NCBI GenBank assembly: GCA_029866325.1
Contig: JARWZO010000005.1
Location: 215,049-279,048 of the forward strand
Length of the DNA stretch: 64,000 nt
Direction: 5' to 3'
DNA from: Fluviicola sp.
Lineage (GTDB): Bacteria > Bacteroidota > Bacteroidia > Flavobacteriales_D > Crocinitomicaceae
The notes below the pieces were generated by a model, which saw only the letters and a program-made list of their open reading frames with translations, had not been told where the DNA came from and did not search any database. The position numbers and the translations under genes are program-made. This document shows positions 56,186-64,000 of this stretch, piece by piece. Position 1 is the first letter of the stretch. Every line of letters begins with the position of its first letter.

Positions 56186-58021
56186 TTATTGTACTACTAC
56201 TTTTTGAGTAGAAACAGCACCTTCAGTTTTAACAGTAACGATGTAGTTACCAGCTTTAAGGTCGTTTACAGAGATAGCAACATTTTGTGCGCCTTCTGCA
56301 TTAGTAACACTTTGAGTAGAGATTGTTCTACCAGCAAGGTCAGTAATTGCGATTTCGTAGTTACCACCTTTACCTTCAAACTTAACGTTTACAACATCAG
56401 AAGCAGGGTTAGGATAAACATCCATTCCAACTTGGTTCAATTCATTAACACCTGCAGCAGCGATATTGATGTTATCAACGTACAGGTTGTTTCCGTATTG
56501 AGATGTAGCAGTAAATTTGATATGTAATTTAGAAGCACTTGCGTAGCTAGCCAAACTTACAGTCTCATTTCTCCAATCTGAAGAAGCAGCTGGTGTAAAT
56601 GCAGCTGTTTGAGCAGCACCTGTAGACAATGTAGTTCCTTGTTTAGAGTAAACAGAAGTCCAAGTGGCACCACAATCAGAAGAAACAAAAACTTCCAATT
56701 TATCATTTTCAGTTTGGTATTGACGGTAAGCTACATCAAATGTCATGTTTGCACTTGAGATAGAAGTCATGTCAATCGGAGCAATGTACGTATCACCTTT
56801 TTTACCTGCAGTAAAGTTGTAGTTATCATACTTGATACAACCTGTGTTTGCCGTTGCACGTACCCAGTTATCTCCAGTTGTTGAAGCTACGTGGTAGTTT
56901 GTGTAAGGGAAAGCTGAACTTGTAAAGTTTTGAGAGAAGTTACCAATAGTACCAGCATCAGAGATATTTGCAAACGTAGTTGTTGCAGTACCTACAGGAG
57001 ACATTGAACCTGAACCGTTGATGTTTGTCAAGTAAGATGTCAATGTGTGTGATCCTGAAGCAGCAGCTGTAGTTGGGATAGCGAAGTTTGTAGTTCCACC
57101 TGGAGCAATGCTTCCAGAGAAAGGAGCCGTTTGAACCGTTCCACCATCAATTTGGTAATTTACAGTTGCAGTAGTAATTGTAGTACCACCATCATTGCTC
57201 AATACAGCAGTTGCACCTGACAAATCACTTGCACAGCTATAGTTTGAAGGAACAGACAAACTTTGAACTACTGCATAGTCATCCAATACAACAGGCAAAG
57301 AAACGCCAGCTTGGTAAACTTCTTTTGTTGTGTTGTTTTGAACCCAAGCAACGAAGCTCAATTCACCTAAGTCATAAAGGTAAGTAGGAATAACTACGTC
57401 GTCGAATGTAAATGTTTGTGAACCACCTGCTGAAGCAAAGTTAGAAGCTACAACTGCAGTTCCTGCTGTTCCAGGGAACATTTTACGCATTACGTTGTGG
57501 AATTCAGTTTCTCCGTTTGAACCAGGAGCAGAAGCAAAAGTGATATCTTTTTCAACCAATGCCAATTGCAATACCGTGTTTGCCGGGTTCCAAATAGCAG
57601 GAGCAGTAATTGTTACTGATACATCTGCAGTAGCAAACCCTGGATTAACGCTGTGCGTAATAGTCATAGATATAGGAGAAGCTACAGCATAACGTGTGTC
57701 GATAGCACTTTGTGTAATATCCATATTTGTTCCATCCATTACACGATCAGGAACTCCACTGATACCATAGTAACTAACACGTGAATCGATTTCTGCTGGG
57801 TTGTGGTTGTACATTGGGTCATAACCAGGCCAGCTAACTTGGTATTTAACAGCTACAATCTTAGTAGTATTCGCATCTAAAGTCGCTTGCATAGCTGGGT
57901 TTTGAGCTGCACAAGGACCACAAGAAGCTTGTGAGAACGCCTCTGCAAGAACCAAACGTTGTTGTGAGTAAGTTACTCCGAATGCAGAAAGCGCTCCGAA
58001 GAATAGTAAAGCTTTTTTCAT
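56186..58021 (-). CDS. Omp28/thioredoxin-like domain protein with Ig-like and adhesin-like domains and a T9SS type A CTD
   Basis: LVLAEAFSQASCGPC (CxxC), VKYQVSWPGYDPMY, GVPDRVMDG, HNVMRKMFPG, YIDNI-like YVDNINI, CTD VYPNPAS...GNYIV...KVVVQ. Confidence 0.8.
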   Translation of the reverse strand: MKKALLFFGALSAFGVTYSQQRLVLAEAFSQASCGPCAAQNPAMQATLDANTTKIVAVKYQVSWPGYDPMYNHNPAEIDSRVSYYGISGVPDRVMDGTNMDITQSAIDTRYAVASPISMTITHSVNPGFATADVSVTITAPAIWNPANTVLQLALVEKDITFASAPGSNGETEFHNVMRKMFPGTAGTAVVASNFASAGGSQTFTFDDVVIPTYLYDLGELSFVAWVQNNTTKEVYQAGVSLPVVLDDYAVVQSLSVPSNYSCASDLSGATAVLSNDGGTTITTATVNYQIDGGTVQTAPFSGSIAPGGTTNFAIPTTAAASGSHTLTSYLTNINGSGSMSPVGTATTTFANISDAGTIGNFSQNFTSSAFPYTNYHVASTTGDNWVRATANTGCIKYDNYNFTAGKKGDTYIAPIDMTSISSANMTFDVAYRQYQTENDKLEVFVSSDCGATWTSVYSKQGTTLSTGAAQTAAFTPAASSDWRNETVSLASYASASKLHIKFTATSQYGNNLYVDNINIAAAGVNELNQVGMDVYPNPASDVVNVKFEGKGGNYEIAITDLAGRTISTQSVTNAEGAQNVAISVNDLKAGNYIVTVKTEGAVSTQKVVVQ

Positions 58022-58047
58022 ATTGCTTGAAATTTTATAGTACATAC

Positions 58048-58908: not shown

Positions 58909-59664
58909 TCAATGCTTCACCACAATGCGTCGTGTTTGAATGGCTTCACCTTTTTCGGCAACTGTAATTAAATAAACACCGTTTTTGAAGTTGCTGACAT
59001 CAATTTTCTCGATTGCACCTGCTTCATCAGCGTAAACTACTTTGCCCAATATATCTGTCACACGAACTGTGTAATCGCCTGAAGCACCTACTGTATTAAT
59101 AGTGATCATGCTAGACGCAGGATTCGGGTAAGCGGTCATGCCAGCTTGAATAGGTTGTGGCTCATTGATTGAAGCAGTTTGGTTAATGTGAATATCAATA
59201 CTATCCAATTTAGTTGAACCATCCAGGAAATAATAACGGTATAATCCACCACCTTCTGTCGTGTTAATCGTAAATTTTGGTTTAAACTCAGCGGTAGAAT
59301 CATTCATTACCGTCATAGTACTAGGAGAAGTCCAAGGATTTACTGCGCTATAAGGATAGCATGTACCATTAAAGTCTGGATCATAACATGGCGCCCAGCA
59401 ATTTACTTCAGTCCACTCGCTTGGCACATCCAACCGATTACGTTGGATAGAGATCATCTTTGTTGATCCGGACATATTTTTTATGTAAAAATGAAGCTCT
59501 ATTTGTCCGCCGACCGGAACGTCATTTTCAACATGTACAGTGCCTCCGACATCAACAGATCCAGCATCAGCAGCATCGCAAGAGGTCACATGGTAAACTT
59601 CATATTGTCCCCAGCTCAAAGAGACAAGTGACAAGGCGGCAAAAAAAGTGTATATTTTTTTCAT
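58909..59664 (-). CDS. Small T9SS type A cargo with one Ig-like domain carrying a CWAPCY motif
   Basis: Signal peptide; NCWAPCY...GTCY; CTD AYPNPASS...VTDILGKVV...NGVYLI...RRIVVKH. Confidence 0.8.
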   Translation of the reverse strand: MKKIYTFFAALSLVSLSWGQYEVYHVTSCDAADAGSVDVGGTVHVENDVPVGGQIELHFYIKNMSGSTKMISIQRNRLDVPSEWTEVNCWAPCYDPDFNGTCYPYSAVNPWTSPSTMTVMNDSTAEFKPKFTINTTEGGGLYRYYFLDGSTKLDSIDIHINQTASINEPQPIQAGMTAYPNPASSMITINTVGASGDYTVRVTDILGKVVYADEAGAIEKIDVSNFKNGVYLITVAEKGEAIQTRRIVVKH

Positions 59665-59704: not shown

Positions 59705-60799
59705 TTAGTTTCCAGAGTCAGTAATAATAAACCCCGTTACTAGGTTTACCGGAGATGCATAAGAATTAGGTAAAGTTAGTATATCTCGTTCTGTGATTGT
59801 TGAAAAAACAGAGGAAGTTGTTGTAGACCAAGTGCTAATTGGAGGTGAAATGCCAAGTGGATGATATAAATATAGTTTTGCCCAGTCATACGCAGATCTC
59901 GATAGAAAGCCATCTGAAGCGACATCTACTTCATGGTTAAAACTAAAAGTAGTTTGAGGTAAATTCAAATTTGTGATTGTTTCGGTCAAGGAAGTTAGAT
60001 TTAATCTGTATAACTGACTTCCGACATTTGCACCGGTTGAAACATTTATTCGACGTAGATACATGATATTGTTTTCCGCAGGATTACCTGTAAGTGATCC
60101 AGAGAAATCCATACCTGCGAAAGCAATTCCTGGGTAAGATTTAACCAATGTTGCAGCACCAGTTGTAGGATTAATTCTGGCTACTATAGAATTTGAGACA
60201 AAAGTTGAACTATTACACCAAATGAACAGGCCATACATTTCGCTACTTACATTGTCATACTCAATATCGTGCAGTACCCAACCACTACTTGCCGGAGCAA
60301 AGGACGCCGTAACGATAACCTGCGAATTTATGGTATAGTTATTTGTTGCATTCATAGTTGCAAACAACAGATAATGCTTGGAATTGGCCGAAACGCTCGT
60401 TATGCTACTTGATGTACTTAAAATCAAACTTGGGTTATATGGACTAACGGCTCTATTTACCGCCAAACCAGTCAAAGACCAACTTCCACCTATTTCATTT
60501 GGTAATTCACCCAACAAATTCGGATTGTAAACTTGAGAGGCGGATGTGCCATTTGAATTCAAAACACCAAGTGTCAATCGCGAAAAAGGGTTTGAAGTGC
60601 CCCATGGGGTTATCCCATCAGGCAAAAAACCTATTCTTGGCCGTTGATTTGCTGGAATAAGCACTATTGTACAAGGAGGGGATATTTTTTCAGATTTTAA
60701 GTTAACGCCACTAAGATTTTTGTTTTTCGAGATTTTGTTACATCCTTGAAAAACTAAAACACTACTTAAGGTTAATAACGTAAGTAACTTAATTTTCAT
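59705..60799 (-). CDS. AT-rich hypothetical lipoprotein (possible beta-propeller)
   Basis: Long ORF with lipobox VFQGC from MKIKLL; Ser/Thr/Asn-rich; no recognised family. Confidence 0.6.
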   Translation of the reverse strand: MKIKLLTLLTLSSVLVFQGCNKISKNKNLSGVNLKSEKISPPCTIVLIPANQRPRIGFLPDGITPWGTSNPFSRLTLGVLNSNGTSASQVYNPNLLGELPNEIGGSWSLTGLAVNRAVSPYNPSLILSTSSSITSVSANSKHYLLFATMNATNNYTINSQVIVTASFAPASSGWVLHDIEYDNVSSEMYGLFIWCNSSTFVSNSIVARINPTTGAATLVKSYPGIAFAGMDFSGSLTGNPAENNIMYLRRINVSTGANVGSQLYRLNLTSLTETITNLNLPQTTFSFNHEVDVASDGFLSRSAYDWAKLYLYHPLGISPPISTWSTTTSSVFSTITERDILTLPNSYASPVNLVTGFIITDSGN

Positions 60800-61081
60800 C
60801 ACTTTAATGTTTTGAACAAATATAAGCCAAAAATCCACTTGATTTATAGGCGTTTTCAAGGCTTTGTTCGATAAGAATACAATTTTTCAGCATTTCCACA
60901 TACAGGCTTACTACTAAAAAAGGGTAAAATTCGCCGTAAACATCTTGTATTGGCTTTTTCGTTGATTAAACGGTAAAAAAGTATTTGTGTTAGCTTTTCA
61001 ATAATTATAGTCAAGCTTTGTTATTTTTAGGAATACAAGAGTCTGTTGAAACTCAAAAATACAGAACTGAGTATTTCGGCT

Positions 61082-61089
61082 TATATTTG
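61082..61089 (+). promoter_or_regulatory. -7 promoter element (TATATTTG) for the TlpA operon
   Basis: TAnnTTTG 45 nt upstream of the ATG at 61134. Confidence 0.55.
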
Positions 61090-61133: not shown

Positions 61134-61637
61134 ATGAAAAAAATTGCTTTACTATTTATCGGACTTGCACTCACCACATTGTCTATCGCACAAGAAGAAG
61201 GAAGTGTAAAACAATTACCTGAAGTGACGTTGAAAGACATGGAAGGGAAAACGGTTAAAACGAATAAATTGGGCTTTGAAGGTCCGGTGGTGATTTCGTT
61301 TTGGGCAACTTGGTGTGCACCATGTAAACGTGAATTGAATACCATTCATGAGACGTATGCAGATTGGCAAGCAGAAACCGGGGTGAACATTGTAGCCATT
61401 TCCATCGATGATCAAAAAACAATGGATCAGGTGCCAGTATACGTAAACGGAAAAGGATGGGAATATCTTGTATTGATGGACCCGAACGGTGATTTCAAAC
61501 GCGCTATGGGAGTAAACAACGTGCCACATACATTTTTGGTTGATGCTGATGGAAACATCGTTTACTCGCACAACAGTTACGCACCTGGCGACGAAGAAAA
61601 ACTCTACGAAGAGATCAAAAAACTAGCTAAAAAATAG
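61134..61637 (+). CDS. TlpA-family periplasmic thiol-disulfide oxidoreductase
   Basis: Signal peptide; SFWATWCAPCKREL; VAISID; cis-Pro loop VPHTFLVD. Confidence 0.92.
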   Translation: MKKIALLFIGLALTTLSIAQEEGSVKQLPEVTLKDMEGKTVKTNKLGFEGPVVISFWATWCAPCKRELNTIHETYADWQAETGVNIVAISIDDQKTMDQVPVYVNGKGWEYLVLMDPNGDFKRAMGVNNVPHTFLVDADGNIVYSHNSYAPGDEEKLYEEIKKLAKK

Positions 61638-61648
61638 ACATCCTCTAC

Positions 61649-63325
61649 ATGAAAAATTGGATCATTGGTATCGCTGCATTGTCCGGGTCGCTTAACGCAC
61701 TCGGACAATCTTCTTTAGGGTCGATTACAGGGAATATGGAAGCTACTTTCCAGTACCTGAATAACGACTCGCTTATAGGCGCAACACAACCTGCTGAAAA
61801 GGGTTTGTTGAATTCGTACATGAATGTATTTTACACCAACGGGCATTTCAAAGCCGGTGCGCGTGTTGAATCATACCTGCCGCGAATTCAGGGATATCCG
61901 AATCGTTTCGACGGAACGGGAATAGGGATGCGTTATGTAGGTTACGTCAATGATTATGTGGATGTGACGCTCGGAAATTTCTACGAACAATTCGGTTCCG
62001 GAATGATTTTCCGTGCTTACGAAGATCGCAACTTAGGGTATGACAATACCGTTGATGGCGGACGTCTTATTCTGCGTCCGATTAAAGGGATTCAACTAAA
62101 AGGAATTTACGGAATACAACGCTATTCATTTGAAGGTGGTCGTGTAGTAGGAGCAGCCGGGATTACACGTGGCTTTGATGGTGAATTGCACTTAAATTCA
62201 CTCCTCCCGCGGCTTGATTCAAGTGGATTCGACATTACGTTTGGCGGTTCATTTGTGAGCAAATACCAAAAAGATGATCGCGAAGATTTGATACTTCCGG
62301 AGAATGTAGGAAGTTACGGTGGACGTTTTCAAGTGCGCTATAAAAAATTCGACTTAAAAGCAGAATACATCCACAAAGAAAACGATCCTTCTGAGGACAA
62401 TTATTACATCTACAATCCCGGGCATGCGGCCTTAATTAATTTTGGGTATTCGCGAAAAGGATTTGGTTTTGCACTTTCTGCCAAATCGGTAGACAATATG
62501 AGTTACCGTGCCGATCGCACCAAAGGTTTGCAAGATGCATTCATCAACTATTTGCCTGCGTTGAACAAAACGCATTCCTACAACTTGGTTGCTACCTTGT
62601 ATCCTTATGCAACCCGACCTGTTGGTGAAATTGCTTATCAAGCAGAAGTTTTATACACGATTGCAAAGGAAAAAACCCGCAGAGGAAAATATGGCATTCC
62701 AATCAATGTGAACTTTTCAACGGCTTATATGCCCATGCTGCACACGTCAGGAATCGATTCGACTGATGGAAGTGGAATTATGTATGTTGGCAGACCGTTT
62801 GATATGAGTGATAGTTTGATGTGGCGTGATTTTAACGTCAATATCTCCTACAAATTCAACAAAGCAGTGAGCTTGACCCTTGCATATTTCAACATTACAT
62901 TGAATAATGATGTTTCTAAAGTAACTGAAGATGCAGTGGGATTGATCAATGCCAATATCGGGGTTGCTGAAATCGGTTGGAAGATCAATAAGAAACACAA
63001 TCTCCGTACCGAGTTACAAGCGCTGTTTGTTCCCAATGACAATAACGGACTTGCAATTGACAAAGGAAATTGGGCAACAATTGTAATGGAATATACCATT
63101 TCACCGGGATGGTTCTTTGGTTTAATAGATCAATATAATTATGGAAATTCGAATGAAGATCGTCGATTGCACCATGTTTACGGTTCAATTGGGTGGATAA
63201 AAGACGCAACTCGTTTAACAATCAACTATGGTCGTCAACGTGCCGGGTTGTTTTGTGTAGGTGGTGTGTGTCGTGTGGTTCCTGCATCTAATGGACTCAC
63301 ACTTTCATTCACGCAAAGTTTTTAA
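61649..63325 (+). CDS. DUF6029-family outer-membrane beta-barrel protein
   Basis: Signal peptide; GNFYEQFGSGMIFRAYEDR; C-terminal YGRQRAGLFCVGGVCRVVP...SF ending in Phe. Confidence 0.8.
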   Translation: MKNWIIGIAALSGSLNALGQSSLGSITGNMEATFQYLNNDSLIGATQPAEKGLLNSYMNVFYTNGHFKAGARVESYLPRIQGYPNRFDGTGIGMRYVGYVNDYVDVTLGNFYEQFGSGMIFRAYEDRNLGYDNTVDGGRLILRPIKGIQLKGIYGIQRYSFEGGRVVGAAGITRGFDGELHLNSLLPRLDSSGFDITFGGSFVSKYQKDDREDLILPENVGSYGGRFQVRYKKFDLKAEYIHKENDPSEDNYYIYNPGHAALINFGYSRKGFGFALSAKSVDNMSYRADRTKGLQDAFINYLPALNKTHSYNLVATLYPYATRPVGEIAYQAEVLYTIAKEKTRRGKYGIPINVNFSTAYMPMLHTSGIDSTDGSGIMYVGRPFDMSDSLMWRDFNVNISYKFNKAVSLTLAYFNITLNNDVSKVTEDAVGLINANIGVAEIGWKINKKHNLRTELQALFVPNDNNGLAIDKGNWATIVMEYTISPGWFFGLIDQYNYGNSNEDRRLHHVYGSIGWIKDATRLTINYGRQRAGLFCVGGVCRVVPASNGLTLSFTQSF

Positions 63326-63343
63326 TTTAATTAGGTAAGTAAG

Positions 63344-64000
63344 ATGAAAAAAATCCTTGTTGCATCAGTTCTTTTGGCAGGTATCTTAGTTGGTAGTTCC
63401 TGTGATCGGGTTACGAATATAAATCCACAAACAACCTCAACTACTTTAGATTGGTCGTTGTATCCGGGCGGAGATTCCTTGACGTATGTTCAAAACAACC
63501 TCTGGCCTTCATTCACACCCAATACGAATACGTTACGCAATGTGCTAATTGAAGATTTTACGGGTCATCAGTGCGTGAATTGTCCGGATGCCACGGCCAA
63601 TATGGAGCAATTGATTGCCACCAATCCATCTCGTATTTACGGTGTGGCTATTCATGCCGGAGCAACTGGATTGACATCTTTTCAAGAAGTGAATGCTGAT
63701 TTTCCGAACCATTTGTATTGCGATGAAGGTTTGGAGATAGGAACTTTCTTTGGTTCTATACCCGGTTCTGATTTTTTTGGGAATCCTAAGTTTTGTGTAA
63801 ACCGCGTAATAGCAAATGATCAGTTTATGTCAAATGCTGGTTCAGCAATCGCCAATAAAACCACTAACTGTTTGGCTTCAGGGCTAAAGGTTAATATACA
63901 AGCTGCTTCGAATTATTTTGCCAGTACACGTGGCTTGTTCTTGCATACGGAAGTTGATCAATTAGATCAATCAATAACCAGTGATTTGGGTATTGTAGTA
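63344..64000 (+). CDS. Omp28-family outer-membrane lipoprotein (3'-truncated by the window; absent from the ORF track)
   Basis: Manual translation gives MKKILVASVLLAGILVGSSC-DRV...RNVLIEDFTGHQCVNCPDA...GVAIHAG, with a lipobox and the EDFTGxxCxxCP Omp28 motif. Confidence 0.85.
   Translation, partial: MKKILVASVLLAGILVGSSCDRVTNINPQTTSTTLDWSLYPGGDSLTYVQNNLWPSFTPNTNTLRNVLIEDFTGHQCVNCPDATANMEQLIATNPSRIYGVAIHAGATGLTSFQEVNADFPNHLYCDEGLEIGTFFGSIPGSDFFGNPKFCVNRVIANDQFMSNAGSAIANKTTNCLASGLKVNIQAASNYFASTRGLFLHTEVDQLDQSITSDLGIVV

Follow-up and report, generated by a model that had tools for sequence, protein, structure and literature searches.

Here, we describe a three-gene module of the Bacteroidota found in a stretch of 64,000 nucleotides of a Fluviicola sp. 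genome (G000:C5:215049-279048), the whole of which was analysed and is referred to below as the window. At window positions 61134-64000, genes for a TlpA-like periplasmic thioredoxin-fold protein, a DUF6029 outer-membrane beta-barrel and an Omp28-family lipoprotein lie side by side on the forward strand. Comparison of gene neighbourhoods and gene content across the phylum indicates that this trio is one heritable unit in Bacteroidota, gained and lost together, and the cysteine motifs of the three proteins suggest that it probably carries thiol-redox chemistry to the cell surface. More specifically, we propose that the trio may constitute a periplasm-to-surface disulfide relay that would provide reducing power to surface thioredoxin-fold proteins, a reading to which we give slightly less than an even chance. 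To our knowledge, envelope disulfide relays end in the periplasm, and we know of no thiol route across the outer membrane.

The trio appears as one heritable unit because gene linkage, association across genomes and the restriction of the TlpA orthologue to barrel-bearing genomes all point to joint inheritance. Of 401 genomes sampled evenly across the phylum, 105, or about a quarter, encode DUF6029. The synteny survey covers 141 loci, comprising the window's own, 60 phylogenetically spread loci and 80 from named genome records, mostly Flavobacteriales; the window's own locus and the 60 others make up the phylogenetically spread set of 61 loci (L002-L062), and the open reading frames (ORFs) of all loci were called mechanically. 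Directly upstream of the barrel, a TlpA-like gene with a CxxC motif is found in 125 of the 136 loci with enough flank, either on the same strand or, in nine phylogenetically spread loci, in divergent orientation, and where TlpA does not adjoin the barrel its orthologue is located elsewhere in the genome (99-189 bits). An Omp28 gene with CxxC lies directly downstream of the barrel in 102 of 132 loci. Within the spread set, Omp28 is found no more than 5 kb away in 49 of the 61 loci, while in four further loci the place of Omp28 immediately after the barrel is taken by a gene for a Redoxin with CxxC and a type IX tail. Clustering of all flanking ORFs of the 61 loci gave no other co-conserved family.

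The genome-level data agree with the synteny. Among the 74 genomes with a Pfam Omp28 match, 68 have DUF6029 (odds ratio 89, Fisher p 3e-42, uncorrected for phylogeny), and five of the six Omp28-positive genomes without DUF6029 score under the Pfam cut-off. As a control for phylogeny, three contrasts were made, in which G203 was compared with five congeners, G271 with one and G251 with four members of its family. In all three, the TlpA orthologue (120-140 bits) occurs solely in the barrel-bearing genome, where it adjoins the barrel, and the barrel-less relatives have only generic TlpA paralogues (60 bits or less) and no Omp28. A preliminary description of this DNA, made from the sequence alone, had treated the three genes as a functional set, and the synteny of the 141 loci, the genome association and the three contrasts concur in showing that they are gained and lost together. 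A different gene order was seen in L036, L038-L042, L044 and L045, in which Omp28 genes encoding proteins of up to 767 amino acids, most with type IX tails, are located upstream of TlpA and the barrel; the barrel motif of this lineage reads CIGG[VI]C-R-[YF]-EP.

Hidden Markov model (HMM) searches against Pfam upheld the families first proposed for all three proteins, and each gene does encode a thiol motif as described, with WCAPC in TlpA, CVGGVC in the barrel and EDFTGHQCVNCP in the lipoprotein. The middle gene (61649-63325, forward strand) encodes a barrel of 558 amino acids whose sole Pfam match is DUF6029 (PF19494; 571.7 bits against a cut-off of 27, profile positions 1-538). It contains exactly two cysteines, C536 and C541 of the CVGGVC motif (codons 63254-63271, forward strand), which are placed 17 residues before the terminal Phe and, as had been noted from the translation, just ahead of the last strand.

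This Cx4C, on whose conservation the earlier proposal had leaned, proved essentially invariant. The pattern C-x-[GSN]-G-[VI]-C is found at the same place in 138 of the 141 loci, and the three loci without it are truncated or broken by frameshift or N runs. Conservation was scored on an alignment of 118 proteins, each standing for one cluster at 50% identity and sharing 28-59% identity with the query. In these representatives C541 is invariant, C536 is missing once, and G538, G539, R542 and P545 are each kept in at least 90%. We propose the C-x-[GSN]-G-x-C hairpin ahead of the last strand as a signature of the DUF6029 family. In two loci, L024 (G077:C49) and L056 (G289:C4), the barrel ORFs are broken by X/N stretches or a frameshift, and the called ORF is without the cysteine hairpin; the loss in L024 is probably an assembly artefact and not a real loss, because the absent C-terminal piece matches separately in the same contig. 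The loci, and the lengths and matching regions of the 150 representatives listed, gave no sign of a barrel fused to a thioredoxin or an Omp28 domain.

An AlphaFold2 model of the barrel, with the 118-protein alignment as input, reached a mean predicted local distance difference test (pLDDT) score of 94.8 and a predicted template modelling (pTM) score of 0.90. It features about 24 membrane strands, with turns of 2-5 residues on one side and long loops on the other, and ends in the terminal Phe. According to its secondary structure, the cysteine pair resides in the final long loop, which joins strand 23 to strand 24, in a hairpin formed by strands 533-537 and 540-544 with a two-residue GG turn, so that C536 stands opposite C541 across the strands. 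Barrels of this kind have both termini in the periplasm in all known cases. By strand topology, loop L3 (residues 112-134, YEQFGSG...LGYDN; codons 61982-62050, forward strand) is predicted to lie on the extracellular side, and it is the most conserved part of the barrel, with a mean conservation of 0.74 compared with 0.72 for the cysteine-hairpin loop, 0.48 for the membrane strands and 0.45 for the whole barrel. Exposed loops are usually the most variable regions of barrels. Because both loops here outrank the strands and the other loops, in the opposite sense to usual exposed loops, the model suggests that L3 and the hairpin loop together make up a functional core, which may fold across the lumen or into it. 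One periplasmic turn also stands out, at barrel residues 339-349 (62663-62695; AKEKTRRGKYG, consensus LGGKYGT), where conservation is 0.63 against a mean of 0.40 for the other turns; this turn could be a docking site for a periplasmic partner.

Comparison of the model with the Protein Data Bank (PDB) using Foldseek retrieved generic large barrels only, the best being the FimD usher pore with a template modelling (TM) score of 0.44, followed among others by TonB-dependent transporters and MtrB. A close PDB relative of the barrel was thus rejected, as all hits are generic barrels with TM scores of 0.44 or less. Likewise, no homology to DsbD or CcdA was detected, the Pfam match being to DUF6029 only and the PDB matches to barrels only.

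The first gene of the trio (61134-61637, forward strand) encodes a protein of 167 amino acids with a cleavable signal peptide, MKKIALLFIGLALTTLSIA, ending SIA-QEE, and with the W-C-x-P-C motif at residues 60-64 (C61-A-P-C64, codons 61314-61325, forward strand). It matches Pfam AhpC-TSA (E 4e-23, 82.1 bits), Redoxin (1e-21, 77.5 bits) and Thioredoxin_8. Its scores are below every NCBIfam cut-off, with 83.9 against 170 for ResA, 64.6 against 123 for DsbE and 46.6 against 230 for TlpA. The nearest solved structure is PDB 2m72 (E 4.5e-47), with ResA and DsbE structures at 7e-18 or weaker, and TlpA paralogues of the same genome score at most 57.5 bits compared with 377 for the window protein itself. 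Because the orthologue tracks the barrel, the paralogues score low and 2m72 is much closer than ResA or DsbE, the sequence comparison indicates that this protein represents a separate subfamily of the 2m72 type, dedicated to the trio.

The third gene starts at 63344 on the forward strand and passes the end of the window (gene end at window-equivalent 64321), encoding an Omp28-family lipoprotein of 325 amino acids in the genome. The protein includes a lipobox, LVGSSC, with the lipid-bearing cysteine at position 20, and a CxxC at C77-V-N-C80 (codons 63572-63583, forward strand). At full length it matches Pfam Omp28 (PF11551) at 65.3 bits against a cut-off of 34.9; the NCBIfam model lipoprot_Omp28 (NF033782) gave 62.3 against 150, scored on the in-window piece of 219 amino acids only. 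Its AlphaFold2 model (pLDDT 92.1) consists of a thioredoxin-like N-terminal domain followed by a beta-sandwich Omp28 domain, and the CxxC is situated at a helix start, after strand 67-72 and ahead of helix 80-93. The top Foldseek match of this model is HBP35 of Porphyromonas gingivalis (5y1a; E 5e-13, TM 0.56, identity 17%), followed by 2axo, a DUF1223 thioredoxin-like protein, and 2r2c, an Omp28 domain. A profile of the partners searched against the PDB likewise matched 2r2c at 3e-36 and HBP35 5y1a at 5e-14, the latter spanning the CxxC. By its model, the window protein would thus be a structural relative of HBP35.

This relationship is informative, as HBP35 is a surface protein that reduces insulin faster than Escherichia coli thioredoxin, dependent on its two cysteines (PMC2907840). 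HBP35 and Omp28 (2r2c) of P. gingivalis are like the window protein in having a thioredoxin-like CxxC domain followed by an Omp28 beta-sandwich; HBP35 differs in being type IX secretion cargo, whereas the window protein, a lipoprotein, lacks the type IX tail. In Paraprevotella clara, the Omp28-related protein 00502 is anchored to the surface by the type IX route, recruits trypsin and promotes its autodegradation (PMC9477747); it is much larger than the window protein and multidomain. The view with which the sequence was first described, that Omp28 has no established function, accordingly needs qualification, in that its relative HBP35 has thioredoxin activity and an Omp28-related Paraprevotella protein is needed for trypsin degradation. 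A search of the 401 Bacteroidota genomes for selenocysteine forms of Omp28 (NCBIfam NF045500), which would be a separate indication of redox catalysis, gave 0 matches, a count that is uninformative as the control genomes were also without a match.

The distribution of surface-targeting signals among the partners extends this picture. Every one of the 102 adjacent partners has a Pfam Omp28 match, with C77 and C80 conserved without exception. A lipobox cysteine is present in 94 of the 102, and the other eight all have a type IX sorting domain; in the window lipoprotein, a Pfam search of the full-length protein gave no type IX tail (Por_Secre_tail). The most distant lineage of barrels, like some Flavobacteriales, has as its downstream partner a Redoxin-type protein with CPHC or CGPC and a type IX tail. 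Because this Redoxin stands in where an adjacent Omp28 is missing, the conserved trait, as judged from these sequences, would be a surface-directed thioredoxin fold and not one given family. Attachment of type IX cargo to the cell surface has been shown for HBP35 (PMC2907840). The lipoprotein partners share the motif C-D-[KR]-[VI]-[DE]-N-P after the lipid cysteine, and the net charge of the partners in this region is -1.46, compared with +0.16 for 155 candidate lipoproteins of the same genome. A further family of proteins of about 480-520 amino acids, in which a Redoxin-like domain at the N-terminus (CGPC or CSPC) is combined with a type IX tail, was found at L012:2835-4286, L020:2868-4334, L022:2880-4346, L121:6725-8200 and other positions. 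In many Flavobacteriales loci this family either precedes TlpA by 640-700 nt or immediately follows the barrel, and from its position it would be a fourth, optional member of the module.

In the relay that we propose, inner-membrane DsbD would reduce the soluble periplasmic TlpA-like protein, which in turn would reduce the disulfide of the barrel's C-x-G-G-x-C hairpin. Electrons would pass next from the hairpin to the CxxC of the Omp28/HBP35-like protein anchored at the external face of the outer membrane, and this surface protein would act on extracellular substrates. In such a scheme the hairpin would be an all-beta cysteine pair between two thioredoxin folds, with a role like that of nDsbD between cDsbD and CcmG/DsbC. 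Within this scheme, each electron transfer and its direction are inferred, as are the substrates and the exposure of the hairpin to the periplasm.

The closest known parallel is the pathway from DsbD/CcdA to TlpA/ResA/CcmG, which is likewise a cascade of cysteine pairs alternating thioredoxin folds with a cysteine pair in beta structure. There, the all-beta nDsbD, of immunoglobulin fold, relays electrons between thioredoxin-fold partners through Cys103-Cys109 (PMC3137068). The trio resembles this pathway further in that its first gene encodes a TlpA/ResA-like periplasmic thioredoxin with WCxPC and in that a DsbD gene is found elsewhere in the genome (C12:242183-242818, 62.4 bits). It departs from the pathway in that its middle part is an outer-membrane barrel of about 24 strands without DsbD homology and the presumed acceptor is extracellular, and also in that its TlpA falls under the NCBIfam cut-offs for TlpA, ResA and DsbE and belongs to its own 2m72-type subfamily. 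A second parallel is the MtrCAB conduit (6r2q), in which a large outer-membrane barrel also joins a periplasmic redox protein to a surface redox lipoprotein. Unlike MtrCAB, the trio has no haem motifs, thiol-disulfide exchange is proposed instead of haem electron hopping, and the fold match is generic (TM 0.37).

A bolder form of the proposal, which we consider possible although rather doubtful, is that DUF6029 conducts electrons across a bacterial outer membrane by means of thiols, as the first conduit of this kind. TlpA would enter the open periplasmic mouth of the roughly 24-stranded barrel and reduce the hairpin there, the hairpin and L3 would together cap the barrel, and the hairpin would reduce any of several surface proteins of the Omp28, HBP35 or Redoxin type, whether lipoproteins or type IX cargo. 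From standard barrel geometry, the C-alpha diameter of a 24-strand barrel is estimated to be near 44 Å. Entry of TlpA by the periplasmic mouth is conceivable, because mature TlpA, with about 147 residues, is similar in size to the plug domain found in a 22-strand TonB-dependent transporter.

Several observations weigh against the relay. By strand topology, the modelled cysteine hairpin lies on the extracellular side of the barrel, and TlpA would need to reach it via the lumen. In addition, a hairpin with a two-residue turn and cross-strand cysteines, as modelled here, is also typical of a purely structural staple. In eight of the 61 phylogenetically spread loci, neither Omp28 nor a Redoxin-tail partner occurs within 5 kb of the barrel. 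The published signal for surface export of Bacteroidota lipoproteins is C-X-K-(D/E)2-X, or SDDDD/SDDFE (PMC5080379), and the window lipoprotein has CDRVTN after the lipid cysteine, with one acidic residue and no canonical export signal. The placement of Omp28 on the outside in the preliminary description is favoured by the type IX tail on non-lipoprotein partners and is less secure for the lipoprotein forms, the window protein among them being only a putative surface lipoprotein. Finally, P. clara genes 00503-00508 beside 00502, which may or may not include the trio, are dispensable for trypsin degradation (PMC9477747).

The structural staple leads to the alternative that survives best, which we regard as unlikely but worth serious attention. 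The barrel would then be a docking platform or uptake channel for the surface Omp28/HBP35-like protein, the Cx4C would merely staple a conserved loop, and TlpA would act in biogenesis, where it would maintain or repair the correct thiol state of both the barrel and the CxxC partner on their way through the periplasm, in an arrangement likened to a TonB-dependent transporter paired with a surface lipoprotein. The hairpin geometry (533-537, 540-544, GG turn) fits a cross-strand staple, its extracellular side suits this role, the barrel is like large transport barrels in general shape, HBP35 has been linked to haem use, and a physical complex would explain synteny and co-inheritance equally well. 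However, the near-invariance of R542, P545 and both glycines would be left unexplained, as would the strict co-inheritance of a dedicated reductase subfamily with the barrel and the swap of the third partner for an unrelated type IX Redoxin that keeps the CxxC.

We consider it improbable that the three cysteine pairs relay thiol-bound cargo inwards, such as a metal or metalloid or bound sulfur or selenium, from the surface CxxC through the barrel pair to TlpA. The mer system, in which Hg(II) passes from MerP to MerT, is a model for such inward transfer. Three successive cysteine pairs in three compartments would suit a relay of this kind, the barrel is generally similar in shape to the metal and cofactor importers OprC and BtuB, and HBP35 binds haemin. 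Yet the motifs are classically redox, with WCxPC in TlpA and CxxC at the helix N-terminus of a thioredoxin-like fold, HBP35 has disulfide reductase activity, and no metal-handling gene is co-conserved in the flanks.

Even less probable, in our assessment, is that DUF6029 is an export or assembly factor moving the Omp28 lipoprotein to the outer leaflet, with TlpA keeping the CxxC of Omp28 reduced before export. In favour of this reading, the lipoprotein surface machinery of Bacteroidota is reported as ill-defined (PMC12889592), the conserved C-D-[KR]-[VI]-[DE]-N-P could serve as a recognition signal, and the genes are tightly linked. Against this, type IX partners have their own route out and are still adjoined by the barrel and TlpA, and the invariant cysteine hairpin would be of no obvious use to an exporter. 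A Wzi-like porin for polysaccharide export, guessed in the sole paper found to name DUF6029 from strong HHpred similarity to plug-less Wzi barrel homologues near OPX genes and suggested there without DUF6029 synteny data (PMC9603273), was rejected as very improbable, given that the flanks of the 61 spread loci show no conserved association with any polysaccharide-export family, that about 24 strands are modelled and that Wzi is absent from the best 50 fold matches.

Returning to the disulfide relay, its main consequence, if true, would be to supply an electron donor for HBP35, which has no known donor and whose authors could not say what keeps the protein active at the surface (PMC2907840). 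In that case reducing chemistry would be actively maintained at the exterior of many Bacteroidota, oral and gut species among them, and DUF6029, a Pfam family of unknown function, would gain an assigned role. The trio is a concrete candidate for the electron source of surface thioredoxin-like proteins, consisting of three small genes with a mutable, invariant cysteine pair, and solved structures exist for relatives of two of its three proteins. Even if the disulfide of the barrel is structural, the strict co-inheritance defines a new outer-membrane complex. A literature search found no paper describing a TlpA-barrel-Omp28 module, and neither the HBP35 paper nor papers on the neighbouring type IX regulator PorA describe a link to a barrel or TlpA partner. 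In vesicle proteome papers, the consecutive P. gingivalis locus tags PG2175, PG2174 and PG2173 are annotated as a thioredoxin-domain protein, an uncharacterised protein and Omp28, respectively, and they may correspond to the trio.

With regard to transcription, the ORF list of window positions 61134-64000 contains three forward-strand ORFs with gaps of 11 nt and 18 nt, so the coordinates and spacing reported for the three closely packed genes were reproduced exactly. From this spacing and the kept gene order, we infer that the trio is an operon. A candidate Bacteroidota -7 promoter box, TATATTTG, is found by sequence at 61082-61089 on the forward strand, 45 nt before the first ATG. The TAnnTTTG promoter described earlier is thus present as a box upstream, but its claim to function is weak because the pattern is no commoner in the window than by chance (61 found against 59.7 expected). 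A terminator scan found no terminator-like site between the trio genes. Across the terminator and sigma-70 promoter scans neither kind of signal was above chance, the promoter scan being one that does not cover Bacteroidota promoters.

The surroundings of the trio include further genes for exported proteins. A protein of 619 amino acids, encoded on the reverse strand at 56186-58045, combines an Omp28 domain (SCGPC; Pfam Omp28, 39.7 bits) and a choice-of-anchor J / MAM-like domain with a type IX C-terminal sorting domain (Por_Secre_tail, 57 bits). These matches would make it a second thioredoxin-like protein directed to the surface; it is situated 3 kb from the trio, of which it may be a further client. 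In other genomes, too, the trio has comparable Omp28 proteins with type IX tails in its vicinity, and contig C20 of the window's genome carries a third Omp28 match. Type IX cargo of 251 amino acids is encoded at 58909-59664 on the reverse strand; it matches no further Pfam domain and includes a cysteine cluster, NCWAPCYDPDFNGTCYPY. Surface thiol chemistry could act on this protein as a substrate, but its gene is not conserved together with the trio. Directly upstream of the trio, at 59705-60859 on the reverse strand, lies an ORF of 384 amino acids with a lipoprotein-like N-terminus and no Pfam match.

Past the window, L002:10668-14483 (G000:C5:286167-289982) encodes a protein of 1271 amino acids with long internal repeats, TNKIPKWNGTTLVDG, and a coiled-coil-like C-terminus, which is unrelated to the trio. 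It is preceded by an ORF of 160 amino acids (L002:10179-10661), the C-terminus of which resembles a type IX sorting domain by eye.

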